Source: Patescibacteria group bacterium
Lineage (GTDB): Bacteria; Patescibacteriota; UBA1384; XYA2-FULL-43-10; 1-14-0-10-43-13
Direction: 5' to 3'
DNA: 64,000 nucleotides
Assembly (NCBI GenBank): GCA_041674765.1
Contig: JBAYVE010000004.1
Coordinates: forward strand, 26,751-90,750
The translations under genes and the position numbers were made by a program. The notes beneath the pieces were generated by a model. That model was not told the DNA's origin. It ran no database searches and saw only the letters and a program-made list of their open reading frames with translations. Of the stretch, positions 5,545-62,198 are shown in pieces; within the stretch, counting starts at the first letter, position 1, and each line of letters begins with the position of its first letter.

Positions 5545-6100
5545 TTTTTCCTTTTCTTCCCCTCATTTTTAAGGAGGGGCTAGGGGTGGTTTATTTATTA
5601 ATTTTCAATTTTTAATTTAAATTTTTCTAATAACTATCAACGGATCAAATCTCTTCTAGCGTGTCATCCTCGGGACCGGCGGTGTTCTCTAGAGTGGTGC
5701 CTCATTCGAGTCTGCCTTCGATTCACACTCAGGCCCTGAGCCTGTCGAATGGGAGCCTGAGGGCTCTTCCCTCAGAGTCGAAGACCGGGGACCCAATTCC
5801 TTTTTTGCGGTGTCATCCTGAGGAACCGAAGGATCTCTGAACTTGTTTCAGGTGGCATTGACTTCGCATTCGCGAGGGATTCTTCGCCTCCTCAGAATGA
5901 CAGACTAATATGGTGTATAACTGATAGATTCTTCGCCTCCGAGAACATTGGCTCAGAATGACAGTTGTTATGGTGTATGTAATCACCATATGGTGATATT
6001 GACCACTCATTAACTTTATTATATACTTGCTCATCGTTCTTGTCAAGGCTTGCTTTGGTGAGAATGTTTTAAATATCAATCGAGCTCAAATTATGCTTTC
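5545..6100. repeat. Cluster of dispersed MITE-like repeats. Modules present: gtcatcctcgggacc; cctcagagtcgaagaccgggg; ctcagaatgacag; gattcttcgcctcc
   Basis: Modules recur at 20512-20740, 27545-27684, 30047-30225, 36294-36700, 40865-41000 and 45685-45960; no convincing ORF. Confidence 0.8.
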
Positions 6101-9106: not shown

Positions 9107-9943
9107 ATGAAAAACAAAAACAAATTATCTTTTATTAAACGATTTGGCTGGTTGATTTTAATTGGTCTTGTACTTTTAATTGGTCTTTATTCGTATTTTG
9201 TCGAGCCCAAATTATTGGGTGTAAAGAGTTTCGTGTATGGGGGCGAGCAGGTGCCGGATGAGTTTATCGGCAAGAAGATTGTCTTTCTCTCGGATCTCCA
9301 TTTTGGTGTCGGCAATTTAGATTATGGCAAAATCGTTGAGAAAGTGAATGATGAAAAGCCGGACATAATCATTCTCGGCGGCGACTATATCGATCGCGAT
9401 CCCAAGTTTATCGATGAGTGCGTTTCTTATTTGGAAAAATTGAAAGCTCCTTTTGGGGTCTATGCGGTCTTTGGTAATCATGATAATCGCAGAAAAGTGT
9501 TACCAGGATTAAAAGCAGCTCTTTCCAAAACAGATATCAAAATTATCAACAACGAGTCCTTTTGGATTAATGCAGGTAGTTCAAGGATCAGAATCGGAGG
9601 AGTGGGCGATCTTGATACGGATGACCAATTGATTAAAAAAACGACCGCCGGCGTCTCAAGGGAGGAATTAATAATTTTGGCCTCGCATAATCCTGATTAT
9701 TTTGAGTCTTTGGTGGGGAATGAAGTTGATCTGGTATTCTCCGGCCACGTCCATGGCGGACAAATGAATTTTTTTAGGCTCTGGTATCCGATTTCGGTGA
9801 CGGCCTACGGAAAAAAATTTATGAATAGTTTGGTAGAGGAAAAGGGCATAAGTATCTTCACATCAAATGGCATCGGAATGACAGCCCTTCCTCTCCGTTT
9901 CTCAGCCAGACCGGATATAATCAGCGTTACTCTTGAGAAGTAG
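9107..9943 (+). CDS. metallophosphoesterase (calcineurin-like) with N-terminal TM anchor
   Basis: DLHFG, GGDYID, GNHD and SGHVHGGQ motifs. Confidence 0.85.
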   Translation: MKNKNKLSFIKRFGWLILIGLVLLIGLYSYFVEPKLLGVKSFVYGGEQVPDEFIGKKIVFLSDLHFGVGNLDYGKIVEKVNDEKPDIIILGGDYIDRDPKFIDECVSYLEKLKAPFGVYAVFGNHDNRRKVLPGLKAALSKTDIKIINNESFWINAGSSRIRIGGVGDLDTDDQLIKKTTAGVSREELIILASHNPDYFESLVGNEVDLVFSGHVHGGQMNFFRLWYPISVTAYGKKFMNSLVEEKGISIFTSNGIGMTALPLRFSARPDIISVTLEK

Positions 9944-10124
9944 CGCTTCAAGCATCCAAGTTCCAAATTCCAAGAACCAATCAATGTCCAAATTTCAAAA
10001 GTTAAGTTCTTTTGATTTGGAATTTAGAATTTGAATGGATGCTAGAGATTGGGTGTTGGTTGTTATTCTGTTGCCAGAAGTTTCTGTTATAATGTTCTTG
10101 TTGAATTATCTCTTGGAGGTTTAT

Positions 10125-11690
10125 ATGTCGCTCGCTAATAAAGTATTGTTGATTATATTGGATGGTTGGGGATTGTCTGGGAAGAAAGAGGGTAATGCCC
10201 CTTTGCTTGCTAAGACCCCGATTTTGGATTATGTCTACTCAACTTATCCGAAGACCTCTCTGACAGCCTCTGGCCTAGAGGTCGGGCTGGGGCAGGGAGA
10301 ACCCGGCAATTCTGAAGTTGGCCATCTAAATATCGGTTCCGGCCGGGTTATTTGGGAAAATTTGCCGAAGATTGATCAAATGATCGCAAATGGTGAGCTC
10401 TACAAGAATAAAGCTTTGCTCGAGATAATCGATCATGTTAAGAAAAATAACTCAACATTAAATTTCATCGGTCTTGTTTCGGACGGGGGAGTTCATTCCC
10501 ATATTATGCATCTATCTTCAATGATTGAATTTGCAGCCAAACAGGGGATAAAAAATATTAATATTCATATGATCACTGACGGACGGGATACACCGCCTTC
10601 TATCGCGGCAAGTTATGCTGAACAGCTCGAGGCCTTCTGCCGCGGTGTTGGTGCAGGTAAAATTGTAACTCTAGTTGGCCGTTATCTCGCTATGGACCGT
10701 GACAAGAATTGGGACCGGGAGAAGCAGGCTTTTGATCTTTTTACTCAGAATATAGGTGAAAAGTATGACACGGCTAAAGAAGCAATCGATGATAATTATG
10801 CTGCCGGAAAAACGGATGAATTTATTGAAGCCAGTGTAATCGGTGAGGGAGGTAAGGTTTCTGAAAACGACGGTGTTATATTTTTCAACCACCGTAATGA
10901 CCGGATGCGTCAGCTTCTCGATCTTTTCGAGGGGGGAGAAGGAGCTGCCGTTCCAACCGGCTTAAAATTAATCACGATGACGCAGTATTTCAAAGGACAA
11001 AAATCAGAATTTATTTTGTCGTCGCAGAATCTTGAAAATACCTTATCGGAGATTGTCTCCAAAAATGGCGGTACCCAATTTCATACGGCTGAAACTGAAA
11101 AGTATGCCCATGTAACTTATTTTTTCAAAGCAGGGAAAGAAGAGCCATACCAAGGAGAGGTTGATGAGGTCGTTCCGTCCAAGAAAACAACTTATGACAA
11201 ATTACCACAAATGTCAGCTCCTGAGGTAAGAGATCAGGTGGTTGCCAGCCTTAAAGAGGGATATAATTTGGTGATCGTAAACTTTGCAAATGGAGATATG
11301 GTTGGACATACCGGTGTTCTGGAAGCGGCGGTCAAGGCTTGTGAAGAGGTTGACCGAGATCTCGGTTTGGTTTTGGAAGGGGCCGCCGAACATGATTACA
11401 GGGTATTTATTACGGCTGATCATGGCAACTGTGAAGAGATGATTGCCCTAGACGGTACTACCCCAAACAAAGAGCATACGAGCAATCCCGTCCCCTTTGT
11501 CTACTTAAATTTTGAAAATCATCCTTACCGGCCCACCTCAGTGCCTTTTTTGGAACCGGATTATCTCCAATATGCTATAGGAACTCCGGTCGGAGTGTTG
11601 GCAGATATTGCGCCTTCCATCTTAGCCAATTTAGAAATTCCTCTGCCTGGAGAGATGGGTGGTATGGATTTGAGCGTAGCTATGCTATAG
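10125..11690 (+). CDS. gpmI: 2,3-bisphosphoglycerate-independent phosphoglycerate mutase
   Basis: LIILDGWGLS, GNSEVGHLNIGSGR, ITADHGNCE; RBS ggaggt before ATG at 10125 (ORF-track start 10035 is probably too early). Confidence 0.9.
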   Translation: MSLANKVLLIILDGWGLSGKKEGNAPLLAKTPILDYVYSTYPKTSLTASGLEVGLGQGEPGNSEVGHLNIGSGRVIWENLPKIDQMIANGELYKNKALLEIIDHVKKNNSTLNFIGLVSDGGVHSHIMHLSSMIEFAAKQGIKNINIHMITDGRDTPPSIAASYAEQLEAFCRGVGAGKIVTLVGRYLAMDRDKNWDREKQAFDLFTQNIGEKYDTAKEAIDDNYAAGKTDEFIEASVIGEGGKVSENDGVIFFNHRNDRMRQLLDLFEGGEGAAVPTGLKLITMTQYFKGQKSEFILSSQNLENTLSEIVSKNGGTQFHTAETEKYAHVTYFFKAGKEEPYQGEVDEVVPSKKTTYDKLPQMSAPEVRDQVVASLKEGYNLVIVNFANGDMVGHTGVLEAAVKACEEVDRDLGLVLEGAAEHDYRVFITADHGNCEEMIALDGTTPNKEHTSNPVPFVYLNFENHPYRPTSVPFLEPDYLQYAIGTPVGVLADIAPSILANLEIPLPGEMGGMDLSVAML

Positions 11691-22691: not shown

Positions 22692-22716
22692 AATCCGCAA
22701 TTACGCGGATTTTTTG
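22692..22716 (+). terminator. intrinsic terminator
   Basis: atccgc aattac gcggat followed by TTTTT. Confidence 0.7.
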
Positions 22717-22741
22717 GTGCCAAATTCTAGAGGAGTAAACC

Positions 22742-22939
22742 ATGAAATCACTCGCTAGTACGGAACAAAAACCTCAGGCGGTAATTGCCGAGAGGACAGC
22801 ACAGACTAGCCATACCACTCTTGAAGTGACTTGGGTCTGCCCGCAATGTAACCGAAAAATTATAACATTGGCATTTCCGGGCGATCTTGAGCTTGAGGCC
22901 GATTGTTCTTGCGGACATTCAGTAGCAATCCGTGTTTAG
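22742..22939 (+). CDS. small zinc-ribbon protein (CxxC...CxC)
   Basis: Strong RBS aggagt; CPQCNRK..DCSCGH; own terminator downstream. Confidence 0.5.
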   Translation: MKSLASTEQKPQAVIAERTAQTSHTTLEVTWVCPQCNRKIITLAFPGDLELEADCSCGHSVAIRV

Positions 22940-22980
22940 TTGTAATCTTCAGTTAGAGATTAGCGACAACGTCAACCTTT

Positions 22981-23014
22981 GCCCCGATGGTTTATTCCGT
23001 CGGGGCGCTTTTTC
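22981..23014 (+). terminator. intrinsic terminator
   Basis: gccccgatggtttattccgtcggggc followed by TTTTT. Confidence 0.75.
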
Positions 23015-36293: not shown

Positions 36294-36700
36294 ACATTTT
36301 TTATTTTATTTGTTTGTCATTTCGACACCTCAATGTGTTGTCGAGGTTTATTCAGGATCAAATTCCTTGCTTCCTCACCTTCTCGAGGGGAGGCTAGGTG
36401 GGGTGTATAAAATATAACTCCATTTGTTATTTTCTTTTTTTGAGGACAAAGGGACTTATTCTCTTCGAGTCTGAGAGTCTTTGATGTTTCTTTTTATCGA
36501 ATTGATATTTGCTAAGCAAAGTAACTGATCATCCCCCCATCGTCATTCCGGACTGTAAGCTAGAGATCTGGAATCTATCGTTATAATAGATCCTGAAACA
36601 AGTTCAGGATGACAGAATGAGTGAGGAGTTACTAAGCTAACTATTGACAAAATATTAATAATATACTATAATATATATAGATATCTGGATCTGATGGTAT
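36294..36700. repeat. MITE-like repeat cluster. Modules present: gtcatttcgacacc...; cctcaccttctcgaggggagg hairpin; gaggacaaagggacttattctcttcgagtctgag; gtcattccggactgtaagctagagatctggaatc; gatcctgaaacaagttcaggatgacag
   Basis: No coding potential; several modules match other clusters. Confidence 0.8.
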
Positions 36701-36714
36701 GAGGAGCAAAACTA

Positions 36715-37029
36715 ATGAAAATTCCCATTCATTCAGGATGGTTGGCTGTTGCAACGGCCATGGTGACACTCGCGGCCACGGGTGTAATACCGTGGTTGTG
36801 GATAGTGTGCTGGGCAGCGGTGTTTGTAGCCTTTTGGCTCATTACATCGCGTTTCGGGCTTCACAGAACGTGGGCCGCTGATCCTGCTTCAGTATCCATC
36901 ATCGCAGTTGTTGGCATCGTCCAAGCAGGATTGATTCTGCAGAACTACTCCTTCCAGGGACTGGTATTGGCCTTTGGAAATATGGTCATTATCAGCCTGT
37001 GCTGGCTAAACATTCGAAGATTCAGTTAG
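36715..37029 (+). CDS. small polytopic membrane protein (GC-rich, about 55%)
   Basis: 104 aa, 3-4 hydrophobic helices, W-rich; composition differs from the neighbouring genes. Confidence 0.45.
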   Translation: MKIPIHSGWLAVATAMVTLAATGVIPWLWIVCWAAVFVAFWLITSRFGLHRTWAADPASVSIIAVVGIVQAGLILQNYSFQGLVLAFGNMVIISLCWLNIRRFS

Positions 37030-41619: not shown

Positions 41620-41620
41620 A

Positions 41621-41712
41621 ATAGTGGAATGTAGAATGTGGAATGTAGAACGTGGAAGGGGGAACGTGGAATGGGCGATGGGGAACGGGGCAGAACGGGG
41701 GAAAGAATGGAA
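41621..41712. repeat. Purine-rich degenerate tandem repeat, second locus (ggaatgtagaatgtggaatgtagaacgtggaagggggaacgtggaatggg...)
   Basis: Shares ggaatgtagaacgtgga and gggaacgtggaatggg with 301-455. Confidence 0.8.
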
Positions 41713-41717
41713 GGGAT

Positions 41718-41776
41718 ACCGGCCGCATGAAGGTGCTGCCGGTTTTTTTAATCGCCCCATGGGGGTGGGGCGATTA
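41718..41776 (+). terminator. tandem hairpins: accggc..gccggt + T7, then atcgcccc..ggggcgat
   Basis: Read directly from the sequence. Confidence 0.7.
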
Positions 41777-41837
41777 AAATCCCAATAAATGGGGCAAAAA
41801 CCTTCCGCTCGGCGGAACTTTTTGGTATTGTCTAATT

Positions 41838-45684: not shown

Positions 45685-45960
45685 TTCCTGAACCGACGCC
45701 AGTCGTCCGTACTCGATGCGGGATCTGCATCTTGATTCAGAATCAAATTCATTTATTGTTCGAGCTTGTCGAGAACTATTTGCTGTTTTTTCTTCTCTTT
45801 GAGGACAAGGGGACTCATTCCGAAGTCGTCCCCCTATCCTCAAACACCAACCCCCTACACGGTATAGAGGTATTCTTCTCTTTTATAAAAAATTGAACTC
45901 CTTTTAGTCGCCCTTCGGGTAAGTAATTTTTTATGTAGGAGAAGAATTATCTGTATAAAA
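45685..45960. repeat. MITE-like repeat cluster (gggatctgcatcttgattcagaatc; gaggacaaggggactcattccgaagtcg; cccctacacgg...)
   Basis: Modules shared with 23115-23145, 36430-36480 and 20590-20640. Confidence 0.75.
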
Positions 45961-46017
45961 AAATATGCAGGGCCCCGAATTATCGGGGGCCCTGCATCGG
46001 TGCAGGAAAGCGGGGCA

Positions 46018-46524
46018 TCAACCCCGTACGACCATTTCTCCTTCCGGCGTTGACGTGAGCCGTGATCGAATATCACAGAGTGTTTCCATGAGGGAGGGAT
46101 TGGCACGCGTACCTTCTTCGAGAAATGTCGCCTTGACTTGAGCCACGGCGTTGTCGAAGCGATCGAGGAGAAATTCCGGCAATTGGTCGATCGCTTTGAA
46201 GCCGATGATAACAGCACGAAACGCGCGGTGAGATCTGGCGACTTCCAGAAGTTTGATACATTGTACGGGGTCGGGTTGAATTTCAAGTTCAACTTCAATC
46301 CGCATGATTTGTGCCCATGTACTCTGCATGGACAAATCGTTCAGCCCTTGATTGAGATACCAACAGGCTTGTGAGCGAGCGAGTGCATTTTGTCGTGCTT
46401 GGCGAGAGATTTCATGCAAGGCGTTCGCACGGAGACTCGGTCTTGTTTTGGCGATACTGTACAGATCAGCGATAGAGCGCTGATTCAAAGGAATTCGAGC
46501 ATTCTTATCCAAGGGTTTGGACAT
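46018..46524 (-). CDS. hypothetical protein (GC-rich island)
   Basis: 168 aa, about 53% GC, divergent from 46862-47743. Confidence 0.5.
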   Translation of the reverse strand: MSKPLDKNARIPLNQRSIADLYSIAKTRPSLRANALHEISRQARQNALARSQACWYLNQGLNDLSMQSTWAQIMRIEVELEIQPDPVQCIKLLEVARSHRAFRAVIIGFKAIDQLPEFLLDRFDNAVAQVKATFLEEGTRANPSLMETLCDIRSRLTSTPEGEMVVRG

Positions 46525-54675: not shown

Positions 54676-55935
54676 TTAATGTGTTGCACAGGTGATACAG
54701 GGGTCATAAGCGCGAATGAGCATTTCAATATTTTTGTTTCTCTCTTTTACAGACAGGTCGTTTAATTTGGGAAGGAATAACGCCATATCTTTTTCCAGAG
54801 CTGGTAAGTTCTGAACCGTTGGAGTAACAAGGTCGCAACTGGTAATTCTCCCCTTATCATCAAGTTCATAATGATGAAAAAGAGTACCCCTTGGAGCTTC
54901 ACAAGCGGCAGTTCCGATACCAAATTTTTTTGGCAATTGTTGGTGTTCTTCTTTTATACTTTTTGATAGTTCTTCGAGTAATTCGACAGAATGTATGACA
55001 AAGTAATAATTTTCGATTGCTTGAGCTAATATATTGTCGAATGGATTGAGGAATGGCAGCTTTATCCCCAGTTCTTTCAAAATATCTTTTACAAAATCAT
55101 TTGGAAAAATATTTAGGTTTGTTCTAGCAGCGGCGCCAACTTGCATTATCTTGCCTTTTAGAGTTCCGAATTTTGTGCTGGTGTATTCTTTTAGCTCTTC
55201 ATCAATATAATCAGTATAATTCCCGGCTTCAAAAACTTGGCCTGTCGATGTCCATATATCTCCTTCATAGTAGGCAAATTTACCTTTTTGATGCAATGCG
55301 CTATCAATAATCTTGCGCTCTACTTCTGGATAATCGAAACTGGCAAAAAGTCTTAATGTTGATTCGGCTATTTCAATAACTGTTTGAGCGCTTCCTATTA
55401 ATTCTTTTAATTGGCTTTTTGCCGGATAAGATTTGAAACCGCCTGGGACATTGGTAATCGGGTGGACGGCTCTGCCGCCGATTACTTCGATAATTTTATC
55501 GGCGAATTTTTTGAGTTCGATCGCATTCTTGAACAGGTCGGGATGATTTTTTTGGAGTTCGAAGGATGAACTAACGCCGACATAGTCAGGCAAAACCAAA
55601 AGGTATAGATGTAGTGAATGACTCTGTATCATCTGTGCTGCGAGCATCAATTCACGCAACTTTATCGTCTGGTCCGACGGCGTTATACCGCAGGCGGCCT
55701 CAATGGCTTTTGTAGAGGTTACATTGTGTATGACCGGACAGATGCCACAAATTCTCGAAGTAATAATCGGGGCTTCCCAAAACTCTCGTCCGACTAAAAT
55801 TTTTTCGATAAAACGGTCGTTTTCGAGGCCAATAAATCTGGCCTTTTCAACTTCATTATTCCTCAGATGGGCATAAAATGCCGCATGGCCTTCAATTTTT
55901 GGTACTGCTTCCATGAAGAACTCTCCAAATTCCAA
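54676..55935 (-). CDS. hydA: [NiFe]-hydrogenase large (alpha) subunit, group 3b-like
   Basis: N-terminal RICGICPVIH and C-terminal DPCITCATH Ni-Fe ligating Cys pairs; about 419 aa. Confidence 0.85.
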   Translation of the reverse strand: MEFGEFFMEAVPKIEGHAAFYAHLRNNEVEKARFIGLENDRFIEKILVGREFWEAPIITSRICGICPVIHNVTSTKAIEAACGITPSDQTIKLRELMLAAQMIQSHSLHLYLLVLPDYVGVSSSFELQKNHPDLFKNAIELKKFADKIIEVIGGRAVHPITNVPGGFKSYPAKSQLKELIGSAQTVIEIAESTLRLFASFDYPEVERKIIDSALHQKGKFAYYEGDIWTSTGQVFEAGNYTDYIDEELKEYTSTKFGTLKGKIMQVGAAARTNLNIFPNDFVKDILKELGIKLPFLNPFDNILAQAIENYYFVIHSVELLEELSKSIKEEHQQLPKKFGIGTAACEAPRGTLFHHYELDDKGRITSCDLVTPTVQNLPALEKDMALFLPKLNDLSVKERNKNIEMLIRAYDPCITCATH

Positions 55936-56193
55936 AATATTACGAATTAACAGTGCAATTTTTCTTAATTCTTTGTTTAAATCAACATAATGTTATTCAC
56001 TGATCAGTAAGCCAATACCCTTTTAATCGTGATTCCCTAAAACCCTATTAAATGTATTTATTCTTCGAATGGTGCTCTTAAAAATGAGAAGTCTGTTACT
56101 GTATTAATAAGTGACCATAGTTCTCGTCGTTCCTCCTCGAACAATAAGGAACAGGGAAATAGTAAGGTTTTCGGGATCACGTTCTTTTACCTA

Positions 56194-56222
56194 TTGACAA
56201 AAGTAACAATTAAGTATATAAT
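56194..56222 (+). promoter_or_regulatory. consensus sigma70 promoter TTGACA, 17-nt spacer, TATAAT
   Basis: Read directly at 56194-56199 and 56217-56222. Confidence 0.65.
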
Positions 56223-56228
56223 GAGTAT

Positions 56229-56356
56229 ATTGTTACTTTAGTTGTGGGTGTGGCGTTAAGCCGTGCCTCTCGCGGCAGACGAGTTTATCTGCCGGAAGGA
56301 AGGGCCGCAGAAATGTGGTAGATACGACTCGTCGGACACAACCGACGAGTCTTTTT
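56229..56356 (+). ncRNA. ffs: putative small RNA, possibly SRP RNA (4.5S-like)
   Basis: Starts about 7 nt after the -10 box; contains CCGGAAGGAAG (the apical GGAA tetraloop region of SRP domain IV in E. coli and B. subtilis, as I recall it); ends in hairpin gactcgtcgg/ccgacgagtc + T5. Confidence 0.4.
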
Positions 56357-56357
56357 A
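56326..56357 (+). terminator. intrinsic terminator (hairpin + T5); A-tract on the other side allows bidirectional use after hydD
   Basis: gactcgtcgg acacaa ccgacgagtc ttttt. Confidence 0.75.
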
Positions 56358-57041
56358 TTTATCCAAATTTCCATAAATCGTGAACAGATTCTCTGTTTCT
56401 TCCCTCTCCACCATTGTATCAAGAATTTGCTTCAATTTCTTTACGTTCGGCTGGGGTATCGGGCCACGGCAGCCGAGACAGGCTTCGCCATTATTAACAC
56501 AGACAGAATTGCAGCCCATGCGAGTGATCGGCCCAAGGCAAGCTTTTCTATTTTTCAATCGGCATTCGTTTTCATTTTGCCGGCATTCGAAGCATACGGC
56601 CAGATCTGGAAGTGTGAATTCTTTCCCCCAATAAATGTCCAAGAGGCACTTATAGAGCTCTTCGTGACGGATCGGGCAGCCAGGGATGATGAAATCAACC
56701 TTTATTACCTCGGGGACCGTTTTGACTTTATCAGTTTTCGTGAATTCTTTCCCGTTTCGTTCTGATTGTATCCCTCCCAAATGCGCGCAGGCTCCAAGGG
56801 CGATGATAATTCCTGATTCTTTTCGTATTTTTTTTAGATGCTCAATCTGTTCTTTGCTGCCAGGGGAGCCCTCAACGATGGCAACATCATAGGGCCCTTC
56901 TTCTTTTTTATTTGAGCCGAGCCGGAAGTTCTTTATATCAAAATAGTCCAGTAGTTTGCTGAACTCTTCATAACTATTTAGCATTTCAAATTGACAACCT
57001 TCACAGCTTGTAAGCGAAAATATGGCAAGTGACTTCCTCAT
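56355..57041 (-). CDS. hydD: [NiFe]-hydrogenase small (delta) subunit
   Basis: LTSCEGCQ and GACAHLGG...GCPI Fe-S ligating motifs; start at MRKSLAIF. Confidence 0.8.
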   Translation of the reverse strand: MRKSLAIFSLTSCEGCQFEMLNSYEEFSKLLDYFDIKNFRLGSNKKEEGPYDVAIVEGSPGSKEQIEHLKKIRKESGIIIALGACAHLGGIQSERNGKEFTKTDKVKTVPEVIKVDFIIPGCPIRHEELYKCLLDIYWGKEFTLPDLAVCFECRQNENECRLKNRKACLGPITRMGCNSVCVNNGEACLGCRGPIPQPNVKKLKQILDTMVEREETENLFTIYGNLDK

Positions 57042-57097: not shown

Positions 57098-57469
57098 CTA
57101 TTTTTTCAAGATAGCTGCAAAAATAAGTATCAATTCATGAACTTCCTTGTAAATTTTTGCAGCCCAATCTCGCTTATTCGGATCTGCTTTCACAATCATC
57201 CTGAGCCAATGTAATGTTTCTTTAGCTTCTTTCTTGGCTATGGCAATCTTGTTCTGAAAATCTTTTTTTGAGTTTGCTTCGTTTGCTTCAGCATAATTAG
57301 CCCCTATACTTGTTCCGGATCGGACGATCTGACTTATCAATGGATTGGTAATAACTGATCCCTTAATATTTTGGCAAAATTCAATAACATCTTCGCCAAC
57401 CTTAGCCGTTCTATCCAGTAGATCGAATTTCTGAATATTGGAATTTGGTTGTTGATTGGATGTTGACAT
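57098..57469 (-). CDS. four-helix-bundle protein (23S rRNA-IVS / Avd-like family), copy 1
   Basis: SIGANYAEANEANSKKDF..AKKEAKETLHWL family signature. Confidence 0.75.
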   Translation of the reverse strand: MSTSNQQPNSNIQKFDLLDRTAKVGEDVIEFCQNIKGSVITNPLISQIVRSGTSIGANYAEANEANSKKDFQNKIAIAKKEAKETLHWLRMIVKADPNKRDWAAKIYKEVHELILIFAAILKK

Positions 57470-57513: not shown

Positions 57514-58314
57514 TTATTTATTTAACTCTGGCTGAATATGATCCCACCGGAAAACCGGTCCGTCCTTACAGACTAAGTGTTTTCCGCAGTTGCAATGCTG
57601 ACAAACGCCGATTCCGCACTCCATCCGTCTCTCCATCGAAACGTAGATTTGGTCATCCAAAACACCACGTTTGTTTAACTCGCTGATCACGTATTGGTAC
57701 ATAATCTCCGGTCCGCAGATAAAAACCAGCGCTTTCTTTGCATTAAATTCTAGCGTCCTGATCGGCTCAGTAATCAAACCCTTTTTGCCGAAAAAATGTC
57801 TATCTGATCTCTCGGCATAGGCTTCAACATCAATTAAATCTTGGAGTTTCTCAATTTCATCGTAAAAGACAAAATGGTGTGATGTCTTGGCGCCGGCGAT
57901 AAGATGGATCTTCTTGTTCTTTGATCTTTTAATCGTAAGATCATGGAGAAGCGACCGGATTGGAACCATGCCCATTCCTCCGCCGACAAGAATCAGCTCT
58001 CTATTTTTAATCTGATCTATTGGCCAGCCGTTGCCGTATGGGCCTCTTATTTTCAAGCTATCGCCCACTAGCAGATTTGAAATCGCAGCAGATCTGTTGC
58101 CGTTAGCTCTGATGCAGAGTTCGAAAAAATCAATATTCTTATGGTGAGAGCAGGGAGCGAGAGTTATGGTTCCGAAGTGATCCAGGGCGGCTTCTATAAA
58201 TTGGCCGGGTTTGAAATCTAGATGCCCTTCAAGCCGGAATAAAAAAGATTCGGGAGCTATCTCTTCTTTATCGAGTATCCTATATTCTTTGTATGATAAA
58301 TTAAGCATTGGCAT
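57514..58314 (-). CDS. hydG: hydrogenase gamma subunit (FAD/NAD(P)-binding oxidoreductase with C-terminal 2Fe-2S Cys cluster)
   Basis: FNR-like fold, CGIGVCQHCNCG. Confidence 0.8.
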   Translation of the reverse strand: MPMLNLSYKEYRILDKEEIAPESFLFRLEGHLDFKPGQFIEAALDHFGTITLAPCSHHKNIDFFELCIRANGNRSAAISNLLVGDSLKIRGPYGNGWPIDQIKNRELILVGGGMGMVPIRSLLHDLTIKRSKNKKIHLIAGAKTSHHFVFYDEIEKLQDLIDVEAYAERSDRHFFGKKGLITEPIRTLEFNAKKALVFICGPEIMYQYVISELNKRGVLDDQIYVSMERRMECGIGVCQHCNCGKHLVCKDGPVFRWDHIQPELNK

Positions 58315-59278
58315 CGACTTTTTTTAACCTATCTTCTTCCTCCGCTATATTGGCCAGCGTCTGAATTATTTTTTTCTGATTGAGATTGGCCGGGCAAGCT
58401 TTGATACAACGTCCACAACCGGTACAGAGAATTTGACCACTTGATTGTTTGGCTCTGACAAATTTATGATGATACCAATTGTATAGACGGTCAGCATTTT
58501 CTGGTCGATAGTCAAAGTGATTTTGAATTTCAGAAAAGCTTTTAGAAAAACAGCTATCCCATGAGAGACAATGCCGGCAGCCAGATTTTTCATCATTGAC
58601 AATCTCCTGTTTGGTACAATAGCAAAGCGGACAAACCGCTGTACATGCACCGCAGCCAAAACAGTTCGAAGCTATTCCTTGCCAAAAAGCTTTAGAGCCA
58701 GCCTTGTCTTCTATCTTCTGCTCTAAGAGATTCAGATTTATAATTTCCGAGTTTTTTTCGATTGGTGTAATTGGCCTAGCTTTGGGGTCGTTTTTTATTC
58801 CACAATCAATTAAAATCTTTTGGCCCCGGGTTGAACCGCTGAAGATGTCGTATTTCTTACCGTTGGATTGGATATGGAGGTCAAACGATTTAACCTCGTT
58901 ATGGCCGAAAGCAGTGCAGAAGCACTCTCCGTCAGGTTTGCACTCTGTTGAGATAACTAGCGGCTTTCCGGGTAATAAATTGGTTTCCGAAAATTCCTTG
59001 TATAATTTTGCTAGAGCAATTACATCGCAATTTGTAAGACCGAAAAAAGCTAGTTTCCTCGCTTCCTTTTTTGCGGGCAGATATTGGAAGTGGTTTGGCC
59101 AGACTATCCCCTTGAAAGGCATGGTTGTCTTTGGGGTTGGTATAGGTATTTGATGGAAGTTTTGCAAAATTCCGAATTTAATATCCCCACCCTCTTTTTT
59201 GGTGCCAAAAATACTATATTCCCTTTCGATATAGCGGAAAATATGTTCAAGCTGAAACTCGGTGACTATTGATTTCAT
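58301..59278 (-). CDS. hydB: hydrogenase beta subunit (4Fe-4S cluster protein)
   Basis: CFGCGACTAVCP and CTGCGRCIKACP ferredoxin motifs. Confidence 0.8.
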   Translation of the reverse strand: MKSIVTEFQLEHIFRYIEREYSIFGTKKEGGDIKFGILQNFHQIPIPTPKTTMPFKGIVWPNHFQYLPAKKEARKLAFFGLTNCDVIALAKLYKEFSETNLLPGKPLVISTECKPDGECFCTAFGHNEVKSFDLHIQSNGKKYDIFSGSTRGQKILIDCGIKNDPKARPITPIEKNSEIINLNLLEQKIEDKAGSKAFWQGIASNCFGCGACTAVCPLCYCTKQEIVNDEKSGCRHCLSWDSCFSKSFSEIQNHFDYRPENADRLYNWYHHKFVRAKQSSGQILCTGCGRCIKACPANLNQKKIIQTLANIAEEEDRLKKVDANA

Positions 59279-59378: not shown

Positions 59379-60497
59379 ATGGAACTATTACAAGACGTTT
59401 CTTTGAGGGGAAAGAAGGTATTTCTCCGGGTTGATTTTAATGTACCTTTGGAAAAGGGTAAGATTTTAGATAACAACAGAATCAAGGCGGCTATTCCGAC
59501 TATTAGATTCCTAGCGGAAAGCCGGGCTATTATAATTATCGGAACTCATTGCGGCCGTCCGGAAGGAAAACCCAGTCCTGAAACTTCCGTGGCACTGATT
59601 GCCAAGGAATTAGAAAGAGTATTGAACCTAAAAGTTTTGATGGCAGAGGGTATTGTCGGAGAAAATATAAAAGGCGTAATAGATAGCTTACATCCAGGTC
59701 AAATTATCGTGCTAGAGAATCTTCGCTGGGACCCACGGGAGGAAGCCAACGACCCGGCATTTGCCAAAGAATTAGCCGGGTATGCTGATATATATGTCAA
59801 CGACGCTTTCGCAGTGTCTCATAGGGCAAATTCATCGGTTGATGCGATCACCAAATTTTTGCCAAGTTATGCCGGACTTTTGATGCAGTCAGAAATTACA
59901 AATCTGAGGCTCCTTTTGGAGAAGCCGGTTCGTCCCTTCGTTTTAATTGTCGGAGGCATAAAGGTGGCCGATAAAGCGGCGATGATCAAGAGGCTTGCCC
60001 CTCTAGCGGACAAAATTCTTGTCGGCGGCGGAGTGGCTAACACATTTTTGAAAGCAAGAGGCCAGGATATCGGGAAATCGGTTTTTGACGAGGAAATGAT
60101 TGCTGAGTGCAAAACAATGCTTGAAAAATTCGGTAGCAAGATTGTTTTGCCGGTAGACAGTGTTAGAGAAGATTTGGGAAGCGGCGAGTTTGGGATTATG
60201 GATATAGGACCGGAGACTAGAAAAATTTTTATTTCGGAAATATTGAATGCCAAGACAGTTTTGTGGAATGGCAATCTTGGCAAGAGCGAAGACGAAAAAT
60301 ATAGGGATGGTATGAGAGACGTAGCAATGGCGATGGCAAAAATTAGGCAGCACACCGTTGTGGCCGGAGGAGATACGGCCGCCTTTGTAATAGAAGAAAA
60401 ATTAAATAATGGCATTGCCTTCATTTCTACCGGCGGCGGCGCTGCCCTGGAATTTTTGGCAGGGGAGAAATTGCCTGGGATAGAAGCTCTACGATAA
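59379..60497 (+). CDS. pgk: phosphoglycerate kinase
   Basis: VFLRVDFNVPL N-terminus, 372 aa. Confidence 0.9.
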   Translation: MELLQDVSLRGKKVFLRVDFNVPLEKGKILDNNRIKAAIPTIRFLAESRAIIIIGTHCGRPEGKPSPETSVALIAKELERVLNLKVLMAEGIVGENIKGVIDSLHPGQIIVLENLRWDPREEANDPAFAKELAGYADIYVNDAFAVSHRANSSVDAITKFLPSYAGLLMQSEITNLRLLLEKPVRPFVLIVGGIKVADKAAMIKRLAPLADKILVGGGVANTFLKARGQDIGKSVFDEEMIAECKTMLEKFGSKIVLPVDSVREDLGSGEFGIMDIGPETRKIFISEILNAKTVLWNGNLGKSEDEKYRDGMRDVAMAMAKIRQHTVVAGGDTAAFVIEEKLNNGIAFISTGGGAALEFLAGEKLPGIEALR

Positions 60498-60526: not shown

Positions 60527-60907
60527 ATGGAAACAAAAAAGTATCTACAACTTAATGACATTGAGGCATATAAAACAGCTTTTTCATTATCAAATTATGT
60601 TTGGGATAGGATAGTGGCTTGGGACCACTTCTCTAAGAGTACAATCGGTAATCAATTTGTCAGAGCAATCGATTCAATCTCGGCAAATATCGCTGAAGGA
60701 TTTGGCAGATACGGCAAGAAAGATAAAATCTGTTTCTATCGATATAGTTACGGATCAATCAAAGAGTCCCTTGATTGGAATGAGAAGGCAAAAGATAGGA
60801 AATTAATTTCCGAAGAAGAATACAGTCGTATCTTTGCAGATTTACAAAAACTGCCTAAATCTGTCAACTATCTCATCAAATTTACTAACGAAAAATTAAC
60901 AATATAA
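60527..60907 (+). CDS. four-helix-bundle protein (23S rRNA-IVS / Avd-like family), copy 2
   Basis: SISANIAEGFGRY..SYGSIKESLDW. Confidence 0.75.
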   Translation: METKKYLQLNDIEAYKTAFSLSNYVWDRIVAWDHFSKSTIGNQFVRAIDSISANIAEGFGRYGKKDKICFYRYSYGSIKESLDWNEKAKDRKLISEEEYSRIFADLQKLPKSVNYLIKFTNEKLTI

Positions 60908-61847: not shown

Positions 61848-62198
61848 ATGGCTAATTCTGAAAAAATATATGATCTTGAGGAAAGGACTTTTATATTTGC
61901 TAGGAATACGGTTATTCTCATTAAAAAACTACCTAAAACAATATCAAATATCGAATATGGCAAACAAGTAATCCGGTCTTCCGCTTCAACAGGCGCAAAC
62001 TATATTGAAGCGAATGAAGCTTTGGGTAAGAAAGATTTCCTTATGAGGATTAAAATCTCCCGCAAAGAAGCGAAGGAATCGGCTTTCTGGTTTAGGCTTC
62101 TGAAAGAAACCAATTCAAATTTTGCTCAAGAGCTAGAATCATTACTGAATGAGGCTACTGAGTTGAAAAAAATATTTTCATCAATGCTTGGAAATTGA
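61848..62198 (+). CDS. four-helix-bundle protein (23S rRNA-IVS / Avd-like family), copy 3
   Basis: STGANYIEANEALGKKDF..SRKEAKESAFWF. Confidence 0.75.
   Translation: MANSEKIYDLEERTFIFARNTVILIKKLPKTISNIEYGKQVIRSSASTGANYIEANEALGKKDFLMRIKISRKEAKESAFWFRLLKETNSNFAQELESLLNEATELKKIFSSMLGN

Follow-up and report, generated by a model that had tools for sequence, protein, structure and literature searches.

The 64,000-nt stretch of DNA analysed here (the window) comes from a metagenome-assembled genome (MAG) of a member of the Patescibacteria (CPR), which are ultra-small, uncultivated and have few transcription factors. On its minus strand lies an operon for a group-3 [NiFe] hydrogenase. In the direction of transcription, genes for the beta (58301-59278) and gamma (57514-58314) subunits are followed by a PF05635 four-helix-bundle gene ('23S rRNA IVS'; 57098-57469) and by hydD (56355-57041), which encodes the small (delta) subunit of 228 aa. 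Beyond a spacer comes hydA (54676-55914), encoding the large (alpha) subunit of 412 aa, with an SD sequence of its own (GGAGAG) 7 nt upstream of its ATG; ABC-transporter genes follow. Among 5.8 billion proteins, none is closer to HydD than 71% identity, and the host has no close relatives.

With the NCBI start codons (hydA ATG at 55914, 228 aa for HydD), the hydD-hydA spacer runs from 55915 to 56354 and measures 440 nt. Its left part (55915-56193, 279 nt) is AT-rich (33% GC), includes an imperfect 23-nt inverted repeat (56028-56050/56160-56181) and contains no credible ORF, no minus strand promoter and, by tblastx, no pseudogene trace. Between 55936 and 56354 we identified neither a minus strand promoter matching at least 9/12 positions nor a canonical minus strand terminator, these being consensus signals, and those of the host phylum are poorly known. 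With regard to a possible MITE, searches of the window, of parts of the 92-kb contig and of the related loci showed one copy of the spacer, and the inverted repeat has no flanking duplication. An independent Logan assembly of SRR6484325 breaks within this spacer: one contig (L002) starts at 56119 and another (L004) ends at 56058. The resulting 60-nt gap (56059-56118) falls between the arms of the inverted repeat, and the break may be due to low coverage, to variation among strains or to a repeat.

The right part of the spacer carries transcription signals on the plus strand, opposite to the operon. A sigma-70-type promoter (56194-56222) matches the consensus at 12/12 positions, with TTGACA as -35 box (56194-56199), a 17-nt spacer and TATAAT as -10 box (56217-56222), and the predicted transcription start is at about 56229. 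Perfect sites of this kind occur three times in the window (6018-6046, minus strand; 36644-36672, plus strand; and 56194, plus strand). Dinucleotide shuffles (n = 100) gave a mean of 0.56 sites even with one mismatch allowed, and none reached three. All three perfect promoters are intergenic, and the one at 36644-36672 lies 43 nt upstream of a gene for a predicted membrane protein of 104 aa (36715-37029) with the SD sequence GAGGAG. Given their intergenic positions and the SD-bearing gene behind the 36644 site, this host apparently does make use of the consensus. The three sites also have TTGACAA in common.

The -10 box is framed by a perfect 11-nt inverted repeat (56200-56210, AAAGTAACAAT; 56229-56239, ATTGTTACTTT), which reaches 14 nt at 93% complementarity (56197-56210/56229-56242). 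This repeat may function as an operator or may form a hairpin in the mRNA of the opposite strand; as an operator, we infer, it could render expression of the small RNA (sRNA) conditional. Its exact 9-mer half-site AGTAACAAT is unique to the repeat within the window. We considered the palindrome as a regulon operator and rejected this, since the half-site has no second palindromic occurrence in the window and its 40 viral matches are heterogeneous. On two viral contigs from IMG/VR (L017, ~895-985; L054, ~140-230), TTGACA is accompanied by three palindromes in tandem, AGTAACAAT-(A/T)-ATTGT(T/C)ACT, which look like a phage operator array. The half-site on these contigs is the same 9 nt as in the -10-box repeat, the half-sites in the window are 18 nt apart, and the relation between the two is uncertain.

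The plus strand also carries an intrinsic terminator (56326-56356), located some 105 nt past the -10 box. It consists of GACTCGTCGG (56326-56335), the 6-nt loop ACACAA and CCGACGAGTC (56342-56351), which form a 10-bp stem with 7 GC, followed directly by T5 (56352-56356). A strict scan of the window found about five perfect-stem terminators of this strength, this one among them, and other strong plus strand terminators in the window follow real small genes (for example, 22743-22940). The T-run shares 2 nt with the hydD stop codon (56355-56357). Read on the minus strand, the same hairpin begins 4 nt past the hydD stop, with an A-tract before it and no U-tract after it.

The transcript predicted from these signals (56229-56356, plus strand) would be about 125-128 nt long. 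Its body forms a GC island, with 58.7% GC versus 42.2% for the window, and ranks among the top 0.45% of windows of 109 nt. In both the MFE and the centroid structures it folds into three independent hairpins plus the terminator hairpin: H1 (56246-56254/56260-56268), H2 (56273-56279/56288-56294) and H3 (56304-56309/56314-56319), the last with a GAAA loop. Between H2 and H3, the purine tract GGAAGGAAGGG (56294-56304) is single-stranded in the MFE structure. The whole unit has an MFE of -51.8 kcal/mol (z = -3.9), and z still reaches -2.2 to -2.9 when the terminator is left out. Eight nucleotides downstream of the SD-like purine tract, a two-codon mini-ORF, AUG-UGG-UAG (56313-56321), can be read from the sequence; it ends 5 nt upstream of the terminator stem, and we report it as an observation only.

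There is no ORF of at least 40 aa between promoter and terminator. Small-protein coding was rejected after inspection by eye, which found on the plus strand only a 25-aa GUG frame lacking an SD sequence, besides the two-codon mini-ORF; a 40-aa GTG ORF on the minus strand is unsupported. No tRNA or tmRNA was found. Membership of other Rfam families was also rejected, as no score came near its threshold, the values being 21.2 bits (E 0.095) for His_leader, with a gathering score of 49, and 16.9 bits for SSRC10, with a gathering score of 56.

A preliminary description of this DNA had proposed a small RNA unit running from promoter to terminator, possibly the SRP RNA, in the gap between hydD and hydA. 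Its account of the promoter, of the strong hairpin with T5 and of several internal hairpins agrees with our analysis, and the promoter-to-terminator unit is, as far as sequence goes, well supported by these signals, the GC-rich folded body and the lack of an ORF, in contrast to its identification as SRP RNA, which is discussed below. The unit does lie within the hydD-hydA gap, but it takes up only the right-hand 164 nt of it and so does not account for the gap as a whole.

We compared the locus with its counterparts in seven related genomes from the CPR, which bear the labels Berkelbacteria or Saccharibacteria and share the arrangement pgk<>beta-gamma-delta-alpha. In five of the seven, hydD is adjacent to hydA, at a distance of 5-45 nt, and the 440-bp spacer of the window is therefore a lineage-specific insertion. 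At the delta-alpha junction, a GIY-YIG ORF (11060-11317) lies within an insert of 1.1 kb in L007 and a GxxExxY-like ORF (~10760-11170) within one of 0.5 kb in L010, whereas at the gamma-delta junction L008 has a four-helix-bundle ORF (9583-9966) and L005 a small membrane ORF. With small selfish ORFs in two other relatives at the same place, the hydD-hydA junction appears to be prone to invasion. The inserts of the relatives are co-oriented coding genes, in contrast to that of the window, which is non-coding and has its signals opposed to the operon. Besides the copy within the operon, the window has PF05635 four-helix-bundle genes at 60527-60907 and 61848-62198, both on the plus strand. The selfish-looking small genes that sit between hydrogenase and glycolytic operon genes are always co-oriented with them, and the junctions that they occupy vary among genomes.

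Relatives of the unit were sought in several ways. Searches with blastn and nhmmer found none in the rest of the window, in the pieces of the 92-kb contig or in about 120 kb of related genomes, and a single-sequence covariance model (R1) found none over 208 kb. Against 50,697 phage records, blastn returned merely promoter-like, AT-rich matches. Pattern scans of viral contigs and metagenome contigs identified no relatives; the few pattern matches (L013, L014 and L055) are chance matches within GC-rich coding regions. No trace of a decayed ORF was detected in the insertion by tblastx.

The unit, so far restricted to a single MAG lineage, is best classed as a candidate cis-antisense sRNA gene. 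The explanation that we prefer, tentatively and with rather less than even confidence, is that of an orphan, lineage-specific sRNA gene, located in the insertion between hydD and hydA, that acts by cis-antisense pairing or transcriptional interference. If the unit acts at all, it most likely does so as a local antisense RNA. Transcription would initiate near 56229 at the consensus promoter, and the RNA would fold into the three GC-rich hairpins, leaving the purine tract exposed, before ending at the strong terminator that abuts the hydD stop codon. As the spacer has no recognisable minus strand promoter or canonical terminator, hydA is probably co-transcribed with hydB-hydG-(IVP)-hydD by read-through of the spacer. 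Given such co-transcription, the sRNA would be perfectly complementary to the intercistronic mRNA. Pairing in cis with the hydD-hydA spacer RNA could then lead to processing or to differential stability, which we regard as the most likely mode, and head-on transcriptional interference against the operon would also be possible. Either mode would allow hydA, together with the ABC-transporter genes that follow it, to be expressed independently of hydBGD.

In architecture and proposed mechanism, the closest analogue appears to be GadY of E. coli, a cis-encoded sRNA that is antisense to the gadX-gadW intergenic region and directs processing there. Like GadY, the unit would specify a small RNA complementary to a polycistronic mRNA, and its own promoter and terminator are both found on the strand opposite to the operon, in an intercistronic spacer. 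The two have no sequence or structural homology, however, and they belong to different phyla and different operons. Another antisense RNA located within an operon is RNA-beta of Vibrio anguillarum, which lowers the expression of the distal relative to the proximal genes of fatDCBA-angRT, but it is longer, overlaps coding sequence and has no homology to the unit.

The strongest competing explanation, which we nevertheless consider somewhat unlikely, is that the spacer is insertion debris at a hot-spot junction, in which promoter and terminator are leftovers that may fire and have no selected role. The unrelated inserts in L007, L010, L008 and L005 at the same or neighbouring junctions would fit such a functionless relic, as would the PF05635 gene between gamma and delta in the window itself and the failure of the DNA, viral and metagenome searches to find a homologue of the unit. 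On the other hand, the window's insert differs from those of the relatives in orientation and coding content, and tblastx detected no decayed ORF. Nor would neutral decay in a genome of 42% GC be predicted to leave a 12/12 promoter, a terminator with a 10-bp stem and a folded, GC-rich body intact together.

The unit could also encode a trans-acting sRNA, for which its position in the hyd operon is incidental. Such an RNA could pair with its targets by means of a CCUCU loop in an alternative hairpin, or could use the exposed GGAAGGAAGGG to mimic an SD sequence or to bait a CsrA-type GGA-binding protein. The purine tract is indeed single-stranded in the MFE structure, and another GGA-rich, terminator-ended non-coding stretch is present at 41620-41750. 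Against this, duplex energies with the window's 62 translation-initiation regions revealed no target that exceeded the shuffled controls, the window representing about 6% of a genome of about 1 Mb: 15% of the shuffled controls scored as well as the best real match, a result that is neutral for a role in cis. There is also no detectable conservation of the unit, and we judge a trans-acting role to be unlikely.

Less probable again is a regulated attenuator, in which the terminator is overridden by an alternative helix or by a ribosome on AUG-UGG-UAG, so that antisense transcription proceeds across hydD, hydG and hydB. An antiterminator-like helix can in fact be drawn between 56278 and 56333 on the plus strand. 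It comprises 12 bp (56278-56290/56320-56333), of which 7 bp pair 56278-56284 with 56327-56333 and 5 bp pair 56286-56290 with 56320-56324, and it sequesters the 5' arm of the terminator. The placement of the mini-ORF, between the SD-like tract and the terminator, and a best Rfam score that belongs, below threshold, to an attenuator model (His_leader) would both suit this mechanism. However, the constrained alternative conformer (-42.7 kcal/mol) is 9 kcal/mol less stable than the terminator fold, and H2 forms first in simulated co-transcriptional folding. The His_leader score is far under the gathering score and derives from generic hairpins, no known aptamer was matched, no homologues were found, and there is no plus strand gene between 56357 and pgk at 59379. 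Antisense RNAs under such control do occur elsewhere, for instance the SAM-riboswitch-controlled antisense RNA of the Clostridium acetobutylicum ubiG-mccBA operon and the B12-controlled AspocR of Listeria. The unit resembles them in that a promoter, a structured leader and a terminator are directed against an operon and that its alternative helix competes with the terminator; it differs in that it has no known aptamer, that its alternative fold is much less stable and that read-through is hypothetical. It is very unlikely that the SD-like tract, AUG-UGG-UAG and the terminator/antiterminator pair form a new, CPR-lineage attenuator, gated by translation or by an effector, that doses antisense RNA into the [NiFe]-hydrogenase operon. 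If true, a minimal-genome episymbiont would tune its H2 metabolism without a protein regulator.

There is similarly little probability that the hairpin at the 3' end of hydD works on the minus strand, either stabilising the mRNA or terminating hydBGD independently of a U-tract, with the plus strand promoter coincidental and hydA expressed from an unrecognised promoter of its own. Its position so close behind the hydD stop codon would be suitable for this. The uptake hydrogenases of Cyanobacteria, which have intergenic hairpins or repeats between hupS and hupL, offer a precedent, and there too an unusually long, structured spacer separates the genes for the small and large subunits of a [NiFe] hydrogenase. 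Those structures and repeats are co-oriented, however, with no opposing promoter or terminator, and they belong to group 2a or 1 hydrogenases rather than group 3. Against this reading, the T-run here is confined to the plus strand side. A 12/12 promoter would not, moreover, be expected by chance, and the one here is directed towards the hairpin over a distance of 105 nt.

The SRP RNA identification in the preliminary description drew on an 11-nt string, and for E. coli this identity is real: CCGGAAGGAAG (56292-56302, plus strand) is present in the ffs gene of MG1655, which encodes 4.5S RNA. The unit also has a similar size (~125 nt) and, like the bacterial small SRP RNA, a strong promoter and a terminator of its own, and the shared string includes GGAA. 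The likeness stops at the edges of the 11-mer. In bacterial small SRP RNAs, the 5' and 3' ends pair to give one long irregular hairpin (helix 5/8), and helix 8 has a GNRA tetraloop and a symmetric loop (AGG on the 5' side, AGCA on the 3' side) that is bound by the M domain of Ffh. On the 3' side of the 11-mer, the unit has GGCCGCAG where E. coli has CAGCC (GGAAGGGCCGCAG here versus GGAAGCAGCC in E. coli), and the AGCA motif is missing. On the 5' side, it has UAUCUG where E. coli has CAGGU (UAUCUGCC versus CAGGUCC), and the AGG side of the symmetric loop is missing as well. GGAA is not a tetraloop in the MFE structure of the unit, and its 5' and 3' ends are unpaired with each other in the predicted fold, which has three short hairpins in place of a long terminal helix.

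Covariance models agree. No SRP family was matched, even at E <= 10, in searches with 601 nt and 136 nt, whereas the same tool gave E. coli ffs, as a positive control, 68.1 bits against RF00169 (gathering score 40). A search of the whole window with Rfam 15 returned no match at gathering score, hence no ffs candidate elsewhere in the window. In addition, an essential and universal RNA would not be expected in a lineage-specific insertion that is missing from all relatives. The unit is not a member of the SRP RNAs (RF00169, clan CL00003), and it is hardly credible that it represents ffs with GGAA as the helix-8 tetraloop.

The practical value of these results is mainly negative, in that the unit should not be annotated as ffs, and the 11-mer is a caution that identity of a short motif can mislead. 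Regulatory RNAs of Patescibacteria are, to our knowledge, almost entirely uncharacterised, and we found nothing relevant on CPR sRNAs or SRP RNA in the literature. A verified sRNA in the widespread group-3 hydrogenase operon of the CPR would, if true, be an early case of RNA-based operon tuning in this phylum.

Other non-coding features were observed in the window. Between the second perfect promoter, on the minus strand at 6018-6046, and the next ORF lie about 430 nt of non-coding sequence that is rich in GC. This region (5545-6046) contains repeated hairpin motifs of the form GTCATYCTGAG...CGAAGAATC, with eight matches in the window versus 1.9 expected, clustered at 5812-5962. The region had no match in Rfam (at E <= 1, noise only), and motifs akin to these are also present in the insert of L007.

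On the plus strand at 41620-41790, G-rich GGAA/GGA near-repeats (GGAATGTAGAATGTGGAATGTAGAACGTGGAAGGGGGAACGTGGAATGGG...) lie directly 3' of an ORF. The run ends in a hairpin with a T7 terminator (~41718-41748), after which there is a second hairpin, and it could be a GGA-rich 3'UTR or an sRNA. A very strong hairpin at 45960-45992 (TGCAGGGCCCCGAATTATCGGGGGCCCTGCA), with its T-run on the minus strand, stands just downstream of the minus strand gene 46018-46524 and is likely a terminator that the strict scan missed. Finally, on the plus strand at 22692-23007, the ORF 22743-22940, encoding a Cys-rich, zinc-ribbon-like protein of about 65 aa, is located between two terminators (22692-22711 and 22980-23007) and has the appearance of a self-contained mini-gene within an 'intergenic' gap of 534 nt.
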